From Candidatus Wukongarchaeum yapensis (lineage in GTDB: Archaea; Asgardarchaeota; Wukongarchaeia; Wukongarchaeales; Wukongarchaeaceae), in assembly GCA_016840425.1 (NCBI GenBank), contig JAEOSI010000109.1, positions 1 to 7,516 on the forward strand: 7,516 nucleotides of DNA, in the 5' to 3' direction. This document shows positions 1-7,516 of the stretch, piece by piece. Made by a program: the position numbers and the translations under genes. How positions within the stretch are numbered: position 1 is the stretch's first letter; each line of letters opens with the position of its first letter. The notes beneath the pieces were generated by a model, which saw only the letters and a list, made by a program, of their open reading frames with translations, ran no database searches and was not told the DNA's origin.

Positions 1-138
1 ATGAATATGAAAACCTACACCAATGGTCATCCGCGTATCTTCAAAGAATACCCCGCTTAAATATCTCTGGGTTAATGTGGTTTTTCCTACTCCTCCATCT
101 CCGGCAAGTACTACCTTGTAAATAAAAGCACTACCCAT
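1..138 (-). CDS. Ras-superfamily (Rab-like) small GTPase, N-terminal 46 aa; runs off the window start
   Basis: Hand translation from ATG at 138: MGSAFIYKVVLAGDGGVGKTTLTQRYLSGVFFEDTRMTIGVGFHIH. It has a beta1 strand YKVVL, G1/P-loop GDGGVGKT and a switch I/G2 motif TIGVGF (cf. Rab TIGVDF). RBS-like AAGGTGGA lies 6 nt upstream. Confidence 0.92.
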   Translation of the reverse strand, partial: MGSAFIYKVVLAGDGGVGKTTLTQRYLSGVFFEDTRMTIGVGFHIH

Positions 139-144
139 AAAAAA

Positions 145-152
145 TCCACCTT
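145..152 (-). promoter_or_regulatory. Shine-Dalgarno-like site for the small GTPase
   Basis: Minus strand reads AAGGTGGA-TTTTTT-ATG(138); GGTG is an archaeal-type SD core. Confidence 0.55.
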
Positions 153-396
153 AAAATCTTGGACTTGGAAAACTTACTATTCATTTTTCCCGTCCTGAAA
201 TCCTAAAAATTTCGAGGTAAAAAGGTCAAATAAAAGATTAAGGCGGGGTTACGTTTAAAAGAACATATTATAAATTTAGTTTAGAGAATATTAATACTTG
301 TTGTTCCTTTAAGTAAGTAGTTTTCGTTTTATCTCCTTTGGCAGCCTTTAATTTAAAAAACACCCTCTCAAGTGTTCACATTGATACTTCTTTTTA

Positions 397-403
397 AAGG
401 AGG
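397..403 (+). promoter_or_regulatory. Shine-Dalgarno site for the small CxxC protein
   Basis: AAGGAGG ends 6 nt before TTG(410) and 9 nt before ATG(413). Confidence 0.7.
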
Positions 404-409
404 AAAAGT

Positions 410-670
410 TTGATGACGATACACAAAATAAAGTTGCCATGTCTCACTTGTAAAGCTGAAGCAAGTTTCATTTTTGACGATGACGATCCAAATATCAAAG
501 ACAAGCAAATGTTTATGCTAGCTACCCTTCACGGCAATCCTCCTCGCGTCCTTATCGCAACCTTTGATAAAAGATTTAAAGTTCGCAGAACTAAATGCCT
601 CCCCCTTCAAATACATGAAGAAAAAGAAGATACAAAGGAAAAAAGACAAAAACCCCTAAAAAAAGCATAA
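410..670 (+). CDS. Small hypothetical protein with N-terminal CxxC and HGNPP motif (possible metal-binding domain); true start may be ATG at 413
   Basis: 86-aa ORF with a strong AAGGAGG RBS; C11-L-T-C14, H41 in HGNPP, beta-strand-like VLIATFD and a charged C-terminal tail. Divergent from the GTPase gene. Confidence 0.7.
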   Translation: MMTIHKIKLPCLTCKAEASFIFDDDDPNIKDKQMFMLATLHGNPPRVLIATFDKRFKVRRTKCLPLQIHEEKEDTKEKRQKPLKKA

Positions 671-833
671 AAATAATCTTTTACCTAATAAAAAACCCCC
701 TTCATCGGTAAAGAATTAGTTTATTTCAAGCTAAATAGCATGTTTCCTTCAAAACAAAAGAGAGTATCCCCCCCTATTTAATAACCCCTCATATTCTAAA
801 AAGATCTGACTCCTATTTACTTTTTCTAGTATG

Positions 834-875
834 TTTAAATAATTGATTTGACCGTTATTATCTCTCAAGAAGGAA
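834..875 (+). promoter_or_regulatory. Putative TATA box (TTTAAATA, 834-841) and RBS-like AAGGA (870-874) for uvrB
   Basis: TATA-like octamer about 40 nt upstream of ATG(881). Spacing fits an archaeal promoter with a short leader, but the region is AT-rich. Confidence 0.35.
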
Positions 876-880
876 TATAA

Positions 881-2959
881 ATGCAAGAATATAAGAAGAA
901 ACTGGATGAAAACTTCAGGCTTATTTCACGTTTTAAACCAAAAGGCGACCAACCGCAAGCCATCAAAAAGCTAGTAGATGGAACCAAAAAAGGGCTTAGA
1001 AAACAAGTTTTATTAGGAGTTACAGGTTCTGGCAAAACCTTCACCATAGCAAAAGTTATAGAAGCCCTCCAAAAACCCACTTTGGTGATCAGCCATAACA
1101 AAACCTTGGCCGCCCAACTCTGCAGCGAATTTAAATCATTCTTCCCAGAAAACGCTGCTGAATTCTTTGTATCTTATTTTGACTATTTCCAGCCAGAAGC
1201 CTATGTACCTACTCGCGACCTCTACATTGACAAAGAAGTTGACATCAACATCGAGCTCGAAAAGTTACGATACGCAACAACCGCCTCCCTAATGTCTAGG
1301 TATGATGTTATTGTGGTTTCAAGCGTTTCCTGTATTTATGGTATCGGTTCCTCTGAAACCTATAAAGAAATCGTGTTAAATATCAAAAAAGGAGATTTAA
1401 TTGACCGGGATACGATCCTTGATAATCTTGTGGAAATGCAATACTCACGAAACGATTATGCATTCAGTAGCAGAAACTTTCGTGTAAGGGGTGACACTAT
1501 AGATATATGGCCTTCTTACCAAGATACTGCTTTTAGGATAGAACTGTTTGGGGATGAAGTTGAGCGGATAGTCGAATTTGACGCCCTTAAAGGGAAAACC
1601 TTAAAGGAACTTACCAGTCTCACAGTATATCCTGCAAAACATCATATACCCCCCCATGTGAAAATTGAGGAAATAGTAGAAGAAATTAAAAAAGAGTTGG
1701 AGGAAAGGCTGCCGTTCTTTGAAAAAAAAGGAAAACTTGTTGAAGCTCAAAGGTTAAGGGAAAGAGTAGGATATGACATAGAGATGCTATTAGAAACGGG
1801 TTACTGTTCAGGAATAGAGAACTATTCTCGGTACTTGGACGGAAGAAAGCTCGGAGAAAAGCCTTACACACTCCTTGACTATTTTCCCGAAGACTTTTTG
1901 ATGATTATTGACGAGTCTCACCAAACCCTGCCTCAACTTAGAGGGATGTGGGGAGGTAACTACTCCCGAAAGAAGAATTTAGTAGATTATGGTTTTCGTT
2001 TACCTTCAGCCTTTGACAACCGTCCTTTAAATTTTGAAGAGTTTGAAGAGTATATGAATAAAGCTTTTGTGATCTTTGTTTCAGCGACACCTGCTTCTTA
2101 TGAGTTAGGCAATAGTGAACAAGTAGTCGAACAAATAATTAGGCCTACAGGTTTGGTAGATCCTGAAGTCTTGATTAGGCCTGTTGAGAATCAAATTGAT
2201 AACTTAATTAAGGAGATCAATGACGTGGTTTCTCGGAATGAAAGGGCTCTTGTTACGACGTTAACGAAACGCATGGCAGAAGATCTTGCAGAATATTTGC
2301 TTGATATCGGTGTAAAAGCTCAGTATTTGCATTCTGAAATAACTGCTCTTGACAGAATTCAGATTTTAAGAGAGTTACGGGAAGGCAAAATAGAGGCTGT
2401 TGTGGGTATTAACTTATTGAGAGAAGGATTGGATTTGCCTGAAGTTTCGTTGGTAGCCATTCTTGATGCAGATAAAGAGGGCTTTTTAAGGTCTGAAACC
2501 TCTCTAATTCAGATCATGGGTCGTGCGGCTAGAAACGTGAATGGACACGTTATTTTGTATGCTGATGAGATGACCAAAAGTATGAACTGGGCTATAAAGG
2601 AGTCAAACAGGCGTAGAAAACTTCAACTTGAATATAATGAGAAGCATGGAATAGTTCCTAAAACCGTTGAAAAAGAGGTCAAAGATCTCCTTGAGGTAGT
2701 TGAAAGTTTCAAAGTTGCTGAAAAGGTCGATGTTTCCCCTGCGCGAAAAGGTATTGGTTTAGATGTTTCGGTACAATATCTTTTAGTAGAAGCTTTTGGG
2801 GAATCTGAGGGAAGTTTGGAAGATGAGGCGGAGTTATCGCTTTTAATTGTTAAGCTTGAAGAAGCGATGAAATTGGCGGCTCAAAACCTTGAATTTGAAA
2901 AAGCAGCTTTAATTCGAGATAAAATAAAAGAGCTTAAAGAGGACCTTAATAATCTTTGA
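881..2959 (+). CDS. uvrB: Excinuclease ABC subunit B (UvrB)
   Basis: 692 aa. Motifs: PKGDQPQAI, Walker A GVTGSGKT, HNKTLAAQL, beta-hairpin SYFDYFQPEAYVP, CSGIENYSR, DESH, GFRLPSAFDNRPL, VSATP, GINLLREGLDLPEVSLVAILDADKEGFLRS, GRAARN and C-terminal UVR coil LEFEKAALIRD. Confidence 0.99.
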   Translation: MQEYKKKLDENFRLISRFKPKGDQPQAIKKLVDGTKKGLRKQVLLGVTGSGKTFTIAKVIEALQKPTLVISHNKTLAAQLCSEFKSFFPENAAEFFVSYFDYFQPEAYVPTRDLYIDKEVDINIELEKLRYATTASLMSRYDVIVVSSVSCIYGIGSSETYKEIVLNIKKGDLIDRDTILDNLVEMQYSRNDYAFSSRNFRVRGDTIDIWPSYQDTAFRIELFGDEVERIVEFDALKGKTLKELTSLTVYPAKHHIPPHVKIEEIVEEIKKELEERLPFFEKKGKLVEAQRLRERVGYDIEMLLETGYCSGIENYSRYLDGRKLGEKPYTLLDYFPEDFLMIIDESHQTLPQLRGMWGGNYSRKKNLVDYGFRLPSAFDNRPLNFEEFEEYMNKAFVIFVSATPASYELGNSEQVVEQIIRPTGLVDPEVLIRPVENQIDNLIKEINDVVSRNERALVTTLTKRMAEDLAEYLLDIGVKAQYLHSEITALDRIQILRELREGKIEAVVGINLLREGLDLPEVSLVAILDADKEGFLRSETSLIQIMGRAARNVNGHVILYADEMTKSMNWAIKESNRRRKLQLEYNEKHGIVPKTVEKEVKDLLEVVESFKVAEKVDVSPARKGIGLDVSVQYLLVEAFGESEGSLEDEAELSLLIVKLEEAMKLAAQNLEFEKAALIRDKIKELKEDLNNL

Positions 2960-3032
2960 TAAAAAGACGATATTCTCAGTTTTTCCCTTTCTCATTCCTT
3001 TATATTGCATAATATAGTTTTTGATAGCGGTA

Positions 3033-3071
3033 TTTTTTGAATAACGTTTTTTCGTACTTTTTTTATTTTTT
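3033..3071 (+). terminator. Oligo-T tract, probable archaeal terminator of uvrB
   Basis: Several T runs (TTTTTT, TTTTTT, TTTTTTT-A-TTTTTT) 75-110 nt after the uvrB stop. Confidence 0.5.
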
Positions 3072-3114
3072 AAACCCGCTGTCTTCAAAGATATAAACTC
3101 TACAAGACATTATC

Positions 3115-3152
3115 TGCATGGGTTAGTGGGCATTAGGCATTTAACCCATTCA
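3115..3152. repeat. Inverted repeat upstream of nurA (possible hairpin or operator)
   Basis: ATGGGTTA (3118-3125) pairs perfectly with TAACCCAT (3142-3149); the stem extends by TG/CA past one mismatch; 16-nt spacer. Confidence 0.5.
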
Positions 3153-3153
3153 A

Positions 3154-4380
3154 ATGCAAAAAAATATCGAGGTAGGCTTTCTAATGGCAATAATAACTGA
3201 AATAAATGGTCAACAATTTTTCAACCAGGTTAAGCTGGATCGGTTTGCAGGAAAAAGCGTCTTTCCTGAAGTTTATCTAACCTTAAACAACTCTCTAGAA
3301 ATGGAAACAAATTCTATTCTAGAAGAACTGAAATCTATGCCAGCCCTTCCCATTGAAAATATTTTAGAAGATATTCCAGAAACGTGTGAAATCAAGGAAG
3401 AATCCTTTATTGTAGGCGTGGATGCAGGTTCTAATGGAGCTCCTCTTGAAGGTTTTTATTTCGGAGCAACTACGGGTATTGCTTACCTTTCTCAAATCTC
3501 TAAAAGAGATGGAAGTATCGCCATTCTTTCCTCAGGAAAACCTCTGAGCAGGGGCGGGACGTTTAGATGCAGTGATTGCGATCGCCCGAGAAGACACCTG
3601 TCTCTAGTAGAATTTGCTTACCTATACTCTACAGCCCTTGAGGCAATAATAAGAATAGATCCTCAAATCTTATTTATTGATGGAGGGCTCCTATTAAACC
3701 CATTATTTTTACCCTCAAGAGAAGAAGCTTCTTCTGAAAAAGAAGAACTATTTCTTGAAGATATTGATTTAGACCTTGTAGAACAGGCACTTATTAAAAA
3801 GAAGAGAGACTATTATATAGACTTTCTTTGCACGGTTTATTTCGCTTTAGAACTTTTTAGGGAGTGTGAACGGAGAAAGATCCCAATAATCGGCATCATT
3901 AAACGTCCCAGAGGGTTCTCATTTTTCAGCAATCATTTTCCAGACTCGGTAGTTTTAGAAAAGGCAGGAATGCCCCTTGGAACAAAAACTAAGCCAAAGT
4001 TTGTTGGTTCCCATCCCGTAACCTCAAAATATGATGTTTTGTGGGAAAAATTTTACGGGAAAAAGCCTAGTATAAGATTTAACGACAAAGAGAAAGGGTA
4101 TCTTAAAGAGTTTTATTTAAAGACAGTGGTTGGTAGAGAACCCATTCGAGTACAAATACCTTACTGGGTGGATGATAAACAGGCTGCAACTTTAACTTTC
4201 GCCTTTTCTGACAGTTATGAAGGCGTTCCTGTACCGATCTTAAAAGCTGATGCTCTCACTTGTGTTTCAGACCAATTACTCCACAATTTACACACAAAAC
4301 TCTACCTAAAACTTAGCATTCTCGCAAAATTAGAGGGGTTAAAGCCGTGCGAAACTGGGCTTATCAGGCTTAAAAGATAG
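3154..4380 (+). CDS. nurA: NurA-family 5'-3' nuclease (RNase H-like fold); probable true start ATG at 3184
   Basis: NurA-type motifs: IVGVDAGS (D90), LVE (E153), LFIDGGL (D176), IIGIIKR and C-terminal GVPVPILKAD (D366), numbered from 3154. Lies 3 nt upstream of a HerA gene. GAGGT RBS at 3169-3173 precedes ATG 3184. Confidence 0.88.
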   Translation: MQKNIEVGFLMAIITEINGQQFFNQVKLDRFAGKSVFPEVYLTLNNSLEMETNSILEELKSMPALPIENILEDIPETCEIKEESFIVGVDAGSNGAPLEGFYFGATTGIAYLSQISKRDGSIAILSSGKPLSRGGTFRCSDCDRPRRHLSLVEFAYLYSTALEAIIRIDPQILFIDGGLLLNPLFLPSREEASSEKEELFLEDIDLDLVEQALIKKKRDYYIDFLCTVYFALELFRECERRKIPIIGIIKRPRGFSFFSNHFPDSVVLEKAGMPLGTKTKPKFVGSHPVTSKYDVLWEKFYGKKPSIRFNDKEKGYLKEFYLKTVVGREPIRVQIPYWVDDKQAATLTFAFSDSYEGVPVPILKADALTCVSDQLLHNLHTKLYLKLSILAKLEGLKPCETGLIRLKR

Positions 4381-4383
4381 AAA

Positions 4384-6102
4384 ATGGCGGGTTTTCAAAT
4401 GGAAACAGGAACTATAAAAATAAAAGGCAAAAAAAAGGCTTTTTCCAAAAGCGTAATTTCCAACATAATGATAGAGGAGGAAGAAGTAAAAGAGGTTGTA
4501 GGATACGTTCTCTCCGACTCTTGTACTGAAACTTTCAACTTTGTTGTCATGGAAGAAAAACGTGTTTCAAAAAACCAATATGTTGTAGTACCACATCCCC
4601 ATGAACGTAACGCTGATGGAAAACCCGTCATGGTCCTTTGCAGGGTTTTAAACGGCAGATACATCAACCCCGAAACAGAAGACGGGGGATATGTAACTCT
4701 TCTTCTCTCAAAAACAGGCATGATGTTTGGAGGAAGAGAACAAGAAATCTTAGTATTTGAATGCCAACTATTAGGATATATACACTCCTCAGACTCCTAT
4801 TCTGAATTCAGACCTGTTTCAGACCCCATACCCACCCTATACCCTGTGTTCGAAGTCGATGAAAAATTCATCAGCAAGTTTTTCAACTTCAAACAACAAC
4901 AAGAAGATGCTGGTCGATTAATAGTTGGGAAAGATGCTCATGCAAATCAAGATATATTCTTAGAAATGAATAACTTGATTAAAGGTCATTTACTCATCAC
5001 GGGGATGACTAGGAGTGGGAAAAGCACTTTTGCCTTAAACCTCATCTTTTCAGGGGTTACAAGCAACCCCCCTATGCGTTTCATAGTTTATGATCGGAAC
5101 AACGAATACATAGGTCTCAAAAAACTAATTCCAGAAGACAAAATAGTCATAATAGATTACCGCCATTTCCTCGATTTTCGCTCTCTTACTGATGAAAATC
5201 TATGCTCAATGCTTGGCTTACCATTAAAACTAAAATGGAGCCAAATAATAACAGAAGCCATCTTTCAGCTTTTTGAGAAACGACTAAAAGATCCTAATAG
5301 GGGATCTAATTGCGATGAATGCAATAAGACTAAAGAAGGAAGTTGTAAAGCAAAAATAGGATGGCTATGCCCTAAGGAACTGCTAGAAATCATTTCAACT
5401 TATCGTACTCCAAGTTCTAACTCCAAAGAAATTGCCCGAAACCATGTCCGCCGAGCAAGATTCCAAAGAAGACTAAAACTTTTAAAATTTTTTGACCCCA
5501 AGCGGGAAAACATAATAGAACTCATAAAAAAACACTTAGTAGTAATAGTAAACCTAAGCACAAATAATAACATCATGCTGCAACAAATGGCAGTGGCTCA
5601 AATAGTGAAAGATGTTTCAAGACACGCTTTAAAAACTTCAGGTCATGATATATGTTGCATGCACCTTTTAGAAGAAGCTCAATTCTACGTGGCCGAAAAA
5701 AACGCGCCAAGTTATGGGGATAACCGAGGGACAAACGTTTATAACACGATAGCTAGCGGTCTTTCACAAATGGGCGGTTACAATGTCGGCTTCATCTTGA
5801 TAACTCAAAGACCCGCTTATGTATCAAAGGCAGCTATAAGTCAATGTAATACGGTCGCAGTCTTCCGACTTAGAACCAAGGCAGATCATGATCAGCTTGA
5901 AAACTCATCCGAATACATCACTAGCGCCTTAAAACAAACAATATCAAGTCTACGTGATAATGAATTTATGCTATCTGGCACCGCTTCCCCCCTACCTTTC
6001 CCCGTAATCGTTAAAGCTAATGTTTTCGTAAGACCGATGAAGGCTACATTAGCCCCCACACAAGTGCTCCAAAATTTGTATAAAAAAGAAAAAGATAGTT
6101 AG
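4384..6102 (+). CDS. herA: HerA/FtsK-superfamily ATPase (HAS barrel plus RecA-like domain), divergent variant
   Basis: N-terminal HAS-barrel-like segment (VVGYV...FNFVV...QYVVV...MVLCRV), HLLITGMTRSGKS Walker A, FIVYDRNNEY, Walker B LLEEAQ, VGFILITQRPAYVSKAAISQCNT and C-terminal GTASPLPFPV; in an operon with nurA. Confidence 0.9.
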   Translation: MAGFQMETGTIKIKGKKKAFSKSVISNIMIEEEEVKEVVGYVLSDSCTETFNFVVMEEKRVSKNQYVVVPHPHERNADGKPVMVLCRVLNGRYINPETEDGGYVTLLLSKTGMMFGGREQEILVFECQLLGYIHSSDSYSEFRPVSDPIPTLYPVFEVDEKFISKFFNFKQQQEDAGRLIVGKDAHANQDIFLEMNNLIKGHLLITGMTRSGKSTFALNLIFSGVTSNPPMRFIVYDRNNEYIGLKKLIPEDKIVIIDYRHFLDFRSLTDENLCSMLGLPLKLKWSQIITEAIFQLFEKRLKDPNRGSNCDECNKTKEGSCKAKIGWLCPKELLEIISTYRTPSSNSKEIARNHVRRARFQRRLKLLKFFDPKRENIIELIKKHLVVIVNLSTNNNIMLQQMAVAQIVKDVSRHALKTSGHDICCMHLLEEAQFYVAEKNAPSYGDNRGTNVYNTIASGLSQMGGYNVGFILITQRPAYVSKAAISQCNTVAVFRLRTKADHDQLENSSEYITSALKQTISSLRDNEFMLSGTASPLPFPVIVKANVFVRPMKATLAPTQVLQNLYKKEKDS

Positions 6103-6130
6103 TTTTTTAAAATGAAAAGCGATTTTTTAG
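6103..6130. terminator. Convergent oligo-T termination region between herA and the 116-aa gene
   Basis: TTTTTT immediately after the herA stop and another at 6124-6129 on +. The minus strand reads CTTTTCATTTT across 6109-6119. Confidence 0.45.
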
Positions 6131-6152
6131 AGCCTTTATTTTTATTTCTTCT

Positions 6153-6503
6153 CTATATTTCTACAATTTTTGTTTTTGAAATCCTTTTTCTCTCTTTTAT
6201 TGGGTATAATTTTGAAATAGTTTCTGCTAGTTCTTCTAACTTTTCGTTGTTTAACATTTTTTGAAACTCTAAAAGCTCATTAAAGCTCTTTATGTAAAGC
6301 CCCCGTCTTTTCGTAGGAGTTCCGTTCTCATCTACGGGATTAAGCTCGATAAGGACAGTTGGTCCTTTATCCCCCCTGCCCGGAACTTTAACCAAGAAAA
6401 TGCCTTTTATCGATGTAGGAATTTTTTCCCAATCGTGGGATTCTTTTACAACCTGCTTAATTTTCTCTTCTAATTCTTTATCTTTTTCTTCTTCTATTGC
6501 CAT
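6153..6503 (-). CDS. Small archaeal protein, probable PC4-like (beta-sheet plus helix) nucleic-acid-binding fold
   Basis: 116 aa with GGTG RBS at 6511-6514. The segment VLIELNPVDENGTPTKRRGLYIKSFNELLEFQKML aligns by eye with the PC4/Sub1 core ([33 protein letters not shown]). The CDS is well supported; the fold call is inference. Confidence 0.7.
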   Translation of the reverse strand: MAIEEEKDKELEEKIKQVVKESHDWEKIPTSIKGIFLVKVPGRGDKGPTVLIELNPVDENGTPTKRRGLYIKSFNELLEFQKMLNNEKLEELAETISKLYPIKERKRISKTKIVEI

Positions 6504-6594
6504 AGATACACACCAACATCTAATCTCAAATGTCAGAATAAAAATTTATTATCAAAAAATTTTGTTATAAAGTAGTGTTTATTAAAGTTTAGCC

Positions 6595-7110
6595 TTAGAG
6601 TAATTTCTTTTCTTTTCTTGCTTCAACCGCTTTTCTGTAAGCGCAATCGATGCATTCGCCAAATTTTTCCAACACTTTTGGTAGTATGTAGGCTGCAAGT
6701 TTAAACTCTTCTCCTTTTGCCTCTTCTTCAAGTCCTTCTTCCCTACGTCTTTGAATCTTTTTTATCGAGTTTGGTATAGGTCCTTCGCTGAATATCAACG
6801 GGTTTTCCCAAACTAAACTTTCTAAAGCATCCAAAAGTGCATCTTCTATGACAATAGGCATATCTGTCACAAAACAGTTTAATTCCCCTTCTTCATCCCG
6901 CTTTAATACCTTAGGTATACATTCTGAAACTTTTCTCACATAACATGTAATACTCTTCGAATCTTCAATAAAAGCGTAGGGGCATGGTAGGTAATGCATC
7001 CTTTTAAAAAACTCTCTTAGGGATCTTATAAGGGAAGGGCTTAAAATCAAATCCTGTTCTCGGCTTCTTTTCCTTGTGTCTTCAACTGATTTAAGGGCCA
7101 AATTTATCAA
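6595..7110 (-). CDS. Cys-rich hypothetical protein (start uncertain)
   Basis: 171-aa ORF from TTG, with an in-frame stop two codons upstream and no clear RBS. Six Cys: C43, C56, C64, C79, C153-x2-C156. Composition is protein-like and it overlaps no other gene. Confidence 0.65.
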   Translation of the reverse strand: MINLALKSVEDTRKRSREQDLILSPSLIRSLREFFKRMHYLPCPYAFIEDSKSITCYVRKVSECIPKVLKRDEEGELNCFVTDMPIVIEDALLDALESLVWENPLIFSEGPIPNSIKKIQRRREEGLEEEAKGEEFKLAAYILPKVLEKFGECIDCAYRKAVEARKEKKLL

Positions 7111-7267
7111 ACCTTAATAAATATAAACAACACGCCTTAATTATTAAAAAATTGTTCTTTTAGGTTAAAGAAATTACCCCTTTAAACTACTAATCTTACC
7201 CCTCGTTTACTTATATTTTATAACTTTAAAAATACTTTCATTTAGAAACATAAAATAATTTTGATAT

Positions 7268-7281
7268 ATTAAGATCTTAAT
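7268..7281. repeat. Perfect 14-bp palindrome ATTAAGATCTTAAT in AT-rich intergenic DNA
   Basis: Identical to its own reverse complement; lies between the partial CDS stop (7310) and the 171-aa ORF. Confidence 0.5.
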
Positions 7282-7309
7282 TATGCTATTAATATTATTT
7301 AATACTTTA

Positions 7310-7516
7310 TTAAAATTCCGCCATGCCTTCATATCCATCTTCAAGCCGTCTCATTCTATTTTCTTCTTCACACTCCTCTTCATATTCCTTTTCTTTTTTA
7401 TCAATTTTCCGTCTTCTCGTTTTTCTTTTCTTTAACTTTTTTCTTTCCTTTTTCTCTCTTTTCGGCGTTTTTACCTTGATCTTAGTTAAGAAATCTTCCT
7501 TTCCTATAATGCTTTT
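7310..7516 (-). CDS. C-terminal 68 aa of a protein entering from beyond the window; basic-then-acidic low-complexity tail
   Basis: Hand translation is open from 7516 to TAA at 7312-7310: KSIIGKEDFLTKIKVKTPKREKKERKKLKKRKTRRRKIDKKEKEYEEECEEENRMRRLEDGYEGMAEF*. Confidence 0.7.
   Translation of the reverse strand, partial: KSIIGKEDFLTKIKVKTPKREKKERKKLKKRKTRRRKIDKKEKEYEEECEEENRMRRLEDGYEGMAEF

Follow-up and report, generated by a model that had tools for sequence, protein, structure and literature searches.

In HerA/FtsK ring translocases, the trans-acting arginine finger is treated as a defining and indispensable element, which catalyzes hydrolysis and couples the subunits of the ring. How would such a ring work if the finger were missing? 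The question is raised by a HerA-like gene from Candidatus Wukongarchaeum yapensis (assembly GCA_016840425.1, contig JAEOSI010000109.1, positions 1 to 7,516 of the forward strand); we call the whole 7,516-nt stretch of DNA analyzed here the window. It contains three + strand genes, in the order uvrB, NurA-like, and HerA-like, and the HerA-like protein has glycines at the finger site. Comparison with homologous sequences shows that a whole clade has lost the finger and that an arginine in the P-loop is a clear candidate for what compensates. With a probability that we put at roughly one half, the protein would be an active NurA-coupled HerA-type ATPase of a distinct archaeal clade, in which the phosphate-activating arginine has been relocated from trans to cis. 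The gene and its finger region are as follows.

4384..6102, + strand: HerA-like ring ATPase gene (P0001), 572 amino acids, with a Pfam DUF87 match and a HerA-fold model; member of the finger-less clade with a P-loop arginine.
5749..5814, + strand: end of helix α3 and sensor-1 strand, I456–P477, from translation and model.
5773..5778, + strand: G464–G465, where Sulfolobus solfataricus HerA has its trans finger pair R381/K382, from profile alignment to 4d2i and 9x1l.

Translation of window positions 5749–5814 (+) gives IASGLSQMGGYNVGFILITQRP, residues 456–477 of the open reading frame (ORF) at 4384–6102. The original prediction, made from the sequence of the window, held that this HerA lacks the canonical EGRK finger and has neither Arg nor Lys between R448 and R476. 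Both statements were borne out, the second directly in the sequence and the first by this translation together with profile alignment to solved HerAs, in which S461-Q-M-G464-G465-Y466 aligned with R-E-G-R381-K382-F of S. solfataricus HerA (4d2i) and the same segment aligned with EGRKFG of T. kodakarensis HerA (9x1l). Fingers of the HerA/FtsK class sit just upstream of core strand 4, at the α3/β4 junction (PMC10853773; PMC5727402). In an AlphaFold2 monomer model of the window HerA, built from 38 homologs (predicted local distance difference test, pLDDT, 84), a helix spanning residues 452–466 is followed by a strand at 468–474 with pLDDT ~96, which puts the finger site at the C-terminal end of the helix. 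Of 27 canonical HerAs, 96% had Arg or Lys at positions 464/465, compared to 0% of the 52 clade members taken from genome loci; these positions were Gly in 98% of the clade, and the difference is far beyond chance. HerA R381K has no ATPase activity and does not support cell viability in S. islandicus (PMC4351679), and in DUF4297-HerA both R455 and K456 touch ATP phosphates from the neighboring subunit (PMC11291478). G464 and G465 align with this finger pair, and both trans-acting basic residues are thus replaced by glycine in the window HerA.

In other respects the protein looks like a HerA. It scored 60.2 bits against the Pfam DUF87/HerA central domain (PF01935; gathering cut-off 23.2), and it fell far below the cut-off of every NCBIfam HerA equivalog; for the canonical double-strand-break-repair HerA models NF040819 and NF040937 it had 62 bits (cut-off 970, helicase_HerA) and 32 bits (cut-off 800). 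The model has a β-rich N-terminus (residues 35–158) and matches the overall HerA fold of HAS-barrel, RecA-like core, and helical insertion. All of its top structural matches in the PDB were HerAs (Foldseek; model-normalized template modeling, TM, scores of 0.54–0.67), the best being T. kodakarensis HerA–NurA (9x1m) and S. solfataricus HerA (4d2i), with TM scores of 0.62–0.67 and E values down to 2e-29. The Walker A (GxxxxGK[ST]) and Walker B (hhhh[DE]E) patterns of the HerA/FtsK class are present as GMTRSGKS and LLEEAQ, and the Q sensor of the class is present as Q475 of TQRP, at the end of model strand 468–474. The class finger is absent, with Gly at both of its positions. By sequence and predicted fold, then, the window protein is a HerA homolog with one catalytic hallmark missing; under a catalytic-site definition that combines a Q sensor with an upstream Arg finger, it lacks one of the defining features.

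Three other assemblies (P0005, P0006, and L007), at 91–94% identity, carry an identical motif. The last of these contains the nearest relative, a HerA 93% identical to that of the window, in a metagenome-assembled genome (MAG) of Candidatus Hodarchaeota (Asgard). The ratio of nonsynonymous to synonymous substitution rates (dN/dS) between the window herA and this ortholog was 0.077, and the gene is thus under strong purifying selection.

The loss extends far beyond these close relatives, and it is accompanied by a change in the P-loop.

5002..5025, + strand: Walker A GMTRSGKS, residues 207–214, in which R210 (5011–5013) lies at K−3 relative to K213.

About 30 proteins of a 5.8-billion-protein collection share the trait, at 30–35% identity to the window protein, as do proteins from 55 loci in GTDB species genomes, for a total of about 60 archaeal homologs at this level of identity; they come from Bathyarchaeia, other Thermoproteota, Korarchaeum, Methanomethylicia, Hadarchaeota, Alkanophaga, and Hydrothermarchaeota. 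In an exhaustive HMMER search of 1.84 billion representatives, with 893 matches, the group stood apart as a discrete block: 23 clusters had E<1e-30, and a gap separated them from ordinary HerAs. Whether the SQMGGY motif marks a conserved clade had been posed as a check on the original prediction, and it does: all clade members have SQxGG[YF]N[VLIM]G, compared to (R/S)EGRKFG in canonical HerA, and a maximum-likelihood tree placed the P-loop-Arg group as one clade (Shimodaira–Hasegawa-like approximate likelihood-ratio support, SH-aLRT, 99) apart from canonical archaeal HerAs, with the Hodarchaeota pair on a long branch close to the clade base. Every clade member has the Walker A sequence G-[MQ]-T-R-S-G-K-[ST], in which the Arg takes the place of a Gly of canonical HerA; in the profile alignment, R210 aligned with G151 of S. 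solfataricus HerA.

We counted how the two features covary over 193 alignable relatives. A P-loop Arg without a finger was found in 62/193 and a finger without a P-loop Arg in 129/193; the remaining 2/193 combine a P-loop Lys with a finger, and none of the 193 had both a P-loop Arg and a finger (0/193) or neither (0/193). P-loop Arg and EGRK finger are therefore mutually exclusive among these relatives. Because the P-loop-Arg group is monophyletic, however, the covariation represents a single evolutionary event; it describes a fixed alternative that has been kept for a long time, and it does not prove compensation statistically. The two P-loop-Lys proteins (P0178 and P0189), distant HerA relatives, have Lys at K−3 (GMTKMGKT) plus an R-K finger (Q-[IV]-R-K-Y-G); because they carry both, a basic residue at K−3 does not strictly exclude a finger. 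P0113 (512 amino acids), the outgroup closest to the clade, has an ordinary P-loop (GAVGTGKT) and the motif T-N-G-G-R-N-G, whose Arg lies two residues downstream of where the finger usually is; it may represent an intermediate state or a finger that has shifted.

Clade members are rare among Asgard archaea, with 3/201 sampled genomes containing one, two of them in the window genus, a rarity that fits lateral acquisition or extensive loss. A member from a second Asgard lineage (G122, L109:1063-2679; P0101) keeps GMTRSGKS and SQAGGYN, retains EEAH in Walker B, and has CQRP instead of TQRP. Because this protein keeps EEAH, the His-to-Gln change in Walker B seen in the window protein is not obligatorily tied to finger loss.

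How might R210 stand in for the finger? The candidate residues on the nucleotide-binding side include a second group.

5092..5109, + strand: D237-R238-N-N-E241-Y, the clade form of canonical DxHGEY, with at least one Arg at 238/239 in 54/54.

The clade consensus at this site is D-R/x-R/x-x-E-Y, compared to canonical DxHGEY, and D237 aligned with D176 of S. solfataricus HerA, a residue near the ATP site (PMC4351679). In the mechanism that we propose, the clade ancestor would have lost both trans EGRK basic residues, the Arg finger and the Lys, and new basic residues would have become invariant on that side of the same subunit which binds the nucleotide, namely the P-loop R210 and R238/R239 beside the active-site Asp. 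R210 would swing to the γ-phosphate of the ATP bound in its own P-loop and stabilize the transition state in cis, possibly assisted by R238/R239. The ring could then hydrolyze ATP without a lent finger, and subunit coupling, if kept, would occur via other contacts. Precedents for an arginine at this position exist. R210 lies three residues before the Walker lysine K213, the same K−3 position as the arginines of guanylate-binding proteins (GBPs) and terminases. In the R48/K51 pair of GBP, R48 is the catalytic finger and R48A abolishes activity (PMC11846989), and in the R44/K47 pair of the D6E large terminase, R44A kills ATPase activity and the residue behaved as a cis element in mixing tests (PMC5727402). 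A P-loop Arg is also found in the packaging ATPases of T4, Sf6, lambda, P74-26, and phi29, which are HerA/FtsK relatives (PMC5727402). An alternative mechanism using either the P-loop Arg or R448 had been among the options offered by the original prediction. Of these, the P-loop Arg is the better supported, being invariant, exclusive with the finger, and at K−3, although it had been numbered R209; its correct number is R210, and that of the Walker Lys is K213 instead of K212. R448 is not conserved in the clade and was ruled out as a catalytic substitute.

The remainder of the catalytic core suggests an enzyme that turns over.

5665..5682, + strand: Walker B LLEEAQ, residues 428–433, with Q433 in place of the canonical His; the exception is P0101 (EEAH).
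5803..5814, + strand: TQRP, residues 474–477, with sensor-1 Gln Q475 and R476, both columns invariant.

Residues K213, D237, E241, E430, E431, Q475, and R476 are invariant across the clade and canonical HerAs, and the window HerA also has the SQCNT motif at residues 486–490. The Walker A Lys, EEAQ, TQRP, and SQCNT had been described beforehand as intact, and we find them so (K213, 428–433, 474–477, and 486–490). Many clade members from Thermoproteota and Korarchaeota carry inteins directly after GMTRSGKS. Inteins occupy positions that are critical to the function of active enzymes. The carriers (L048–L060; for example, L048:4501-6975 and L059:2572-5001) contain large, Hint-type inteins (Pfam PF14890), and intein-containing and intein-free copies occur together in one MAG (L009 and L048) and in another (L010 and L051). 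The invariant catalytic core, the dN/dS of 0.077, and the inteins at the P-loop support the view that these proteins are probably active enzymes.

Several points weigh against relocation of the finger from trans to cis. We infer both the reach of R210 to the γ-phosphate and ATP hydrolysis by the window protein and other clade members, and the covariation is one evolutionary event (n=1) with no repeated independent swaps. Terminases retain a trans finger beside the P-loop Arg (PMC5727402), and for this reason a P-loop Arg may not suffice by itself in the superfamily. Other clade-invariant basic residues, K482 and K553, could serve instead. When PDB sequences were searched with the Walker-A region, none of the solved HerA/FtsK relatives had Arg in the P-loop, and a limited literature search found no report of a finger-less HerA clade or of a cis-acting Arg in HerA. 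A complex prediction with two copies of residues 150–572, ATP, and Mg scored 0.00, gave no contacts, and decides neither way. We would only tentatively call this clade the first HerA/FtsK-class ring motor to dispense with any trans arginine finger and use a cis P-loop Arg only. If it were so, each subunit could fire without sensing its neighbor through the finger, and DNA-translocase coordination would take a different form (stochastic, or gated by DNA or NurA) that evolved once and persisted in several archaeal phyla, with a few Asgard lineages among them.

The partner gene and the genomes in which the clade occurs also bear on the alternatives.

3154..4380, + strand: NurA-like nuclease gene (P0002), Pfam NurA E 6.6e-9, ending 3 nt before herA.
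881..2959, + strand: uvrB, upstream neighbor, given as context; membership in the module is not claimed.

NurA is the sole neighbor conserved across the clade and lies directly upstream of herA in 49/55 loci; D90, D176, D264, and D366 are invariant or nearly so among clade NurAs. The order uvrB–nurA–herA recurs in the Hodarchaeota relative, and the remaining clade neighbors are housekeeping genes. Neither mre11 nor rad50 is in the window, and no Mre11/Rad50 cluster appeared among the conserved neighbors of the 55 loci, nor were small winged-helix ORFs upstream of nurA common to these loci (ATG starts, BLAST E 1e-4). In 16 Bathyarchaeia loci (for example, L015:7591-8265), the finger-less herA is followed immediately by a gene for a calcineurin-like metallophosphoesterase of ~220 amino acids (Pfam Metallophos_3/_2), which may be a minimal Mre11-like partner; Rad50 is absent from these 16 loci. 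Downstream of herA in the window are two convergent ORFs of 116 and 171 amino acids, at 6153-6503 (-) and 6595-7110 (-), which had no match in Pfam or PADLOC.

Elsewhere in the window genome, contig C191 carries a canonical four-gene NurA-HerA-Mre11-Rad50 operon (L087:4562-10765), whose HerA has an AAEGRKFG finger and EEAH in Walker B. The window thus encodes a second, paralogous NurA–HerA machine. In total the genome has five other DUF87-type ATPase matches, the canonical HerA plus four on C143, C176, C276, and C259. Five other clade-bearing genomes were examined, and two of them, a Methanomethylicia MAG and a Hadarchaeota MAG, contain a canonical HerA as well. In the other three (Alkanophaga and two Bathyarchaeia), the DUF87 matches included no HerA of the EGRK type, an absence that is not proven because the genomes are MAGs and may be incomplete.

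The best-surviving alternative, which we nonetheless consider unlikely, supposes that a relocated trans residue (K553, K482, or R238/R239) completes the neighboring site as a lysine finger and that R210 is a cis sensor or coupling residue, as in terminases.

5827..5829, + strand: K482, just past the sensor-1 strand; invariant in the clade (55/55) and variable in canonical HerA.
6040..6042, + strand: K553, in the C-terminal tail motif P-x-K-A-T; 54/54 in the clade; alternative candidate for a trans residue.

In favor of this, both lysines are constant in the clade, and Arg or Lys occupies these positions in 44–48% of canonical HerAs. The C-terminal brace of canonical HerA touches the adjoining protomer (PMC11514289), and terminases provide the pairing of a P-loop Arg with a separate trans finger (PMC5727402). 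However, K482 and K553 do not show the strict either/or relationship with the finger that R210 does, canonical HerAs often have Lys there too, and a position for these two lysines at the interface has no structural support.

Also improbable is a role as a slow switch or scaffold, in which the protein would bind ATP, assemble on NurA and DNA, hydrolyze poorly, and act as a nuclease loader or regulator, not a processive translocase. Loss of the finger ends hydrolysis in canonical HerA (PMC4351679), the canonical NurA-HerA-Mre11-Rad50 set already covers end resection and would leave the paralog free to specialize, and the clade is rare in Asgard genomes. Yet in a clade with only 30–35% identity there is no variation in either Walker B glutamate, in the glutamate of GEY, or in the Q sensor, which would be unexpected if hydrolysis were dispensable, and some lineages appear to have this type of HerA only. 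The suggestion in the original prediction of a non-hydrolyzing scaffold is therefore a poor fit to the invariant Walker A and B motifs, E241, and Q475, the purifying selection, and the inteins at the P-loop.

The prediction had also proposed an obligate heteromer, in which a finger-bearing HerA paralog or another partner would lend the Arg in mixed rings. The window genome could supply one, as its five other DUF87-type matches include the canonical HerA with AAEGRKFG, but no second ATPase gene is conserved beside the clade gene, only NurA, and 3/5 of the other clade genomes had no detectable EGRK HerA (Alkanophaga and two Bathyarchaeia). In solved HerA–NurA complexes, moreover, NurA binds to the side opposite the ATP sites, which also counts against a lent residue, and we regard a heteromer as very improbable. 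That the finger loss is a sequencing or assembly artefact, the error named in advance as fatal to the claim, or the mark of a decaying gene, we reject as having a negligible chance, given the open frame, the same motif in independent assemblies, the dN/dS of 0.077, and conservation of the motif across the clade, with nothing found in its favor.

One further feature of the window protein is a CX2CX7CX7C insertion at residues 310–329 (window 5311-5370), within the helical insertion domain; confidence in the model is low at this insertion (pLDDT 53–68). It is a gap in the seven non-Hodarchaeota relatives aligned, and the amino-acid changes relative to the 93% identical ortholog are concentrated near it (residues 299–360). 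It may be a lineage-specific metal-binding knob.

What do these results mean for ring motors and for archaeal genomes? The clade replaced the finger over long evolutionary time yet remains paired with NurA. It thereby offers a natural test of the role of the finger in ring-motor coordination, and of a cis P-loop Arg of the GBP/terminase type as its substitute. Many archaeal 'HerA-NurA' annotations cover two distinct machines, which occur together in the window genome, the Methanomethylicia MAG, and the Hadarchaeota MAG; in Bathyarchaeia and Alkanophaga only the finger-less type was found. This split bears on the inference of DNA-repair capacity, including that of Asgard archaea, whose NurA and HerA proteins are uncharacterized (PMC13748450).

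Among known systems, the anti-phage HerAs (Sir2-HerA and DUF4297-HerA) resemble the window module in pairing a HerA-type ATPase with one effector-like nuclease gene in a two-gene arrangement, and the window HerA partially matches NCBIfam HerA_antiphage and the PADLOC HerA models over its C-terminal half. However, the match reached 70 bits against a cut-off of 800, the partner is NurA and not Sir2 or DUF4297, the anti-phage enzyme retains an R-K finger (PMC11291478), and the neighborhoods of the window and the clade are housekeeping ones. The window NurA had no PADLOC match, and no Sir2 or DUF4297 effector gene adjoins. A role as a defense system was rejected on these grounds: matches below cut-off only, no effector gene, housekeeping neighbors, and no defense-island signature.

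The archaeal HerA-NurA(-Mre11-Rad50) machinery of end resection (4d2i, 9x1l/9x1m) is closer. It shares with the window system the full-length fold, Walker A and B, the DxxGEY glutamate, the Q-R-P sensor strand, SQCNT, and a nurA gene immediately upstream. It differs in sequence, with identities of 16–17% in Foldseek alignments to solved HerAs and 21–24% to canonical homologs, and at the catalytic site, where archaeal HerA has EGRK, a P-loop Gly, a Walker B His, and DxHGEY, and the window protein has Q-M-G-G, Arg, Gln, and the clade form D-R/x-R/x-x-E-Y, respectively. It differs also in context, as the clade has no Mre11/Rad50 linkage in 55 loci and coexists with the canonical operon in the window genome.

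The likeness to cis P-loop-arginine NTPases is a functional analogy only, suggested by sequence position at K−3. GBPs (G-L-Y-R-T-G-K-S, R48) and the terminase/phi29 ATPases (D6E R44/K47) have Arg at the Walker Lys minus 3, where it is cis-acting and essential, and the window HerA could use R210 in the same manner. GBPs, however, are dimer-activated GTPases of unrelated architecture, and in terminases the HerA/FtsK position continues to provide a trans finger, where the clade has none.

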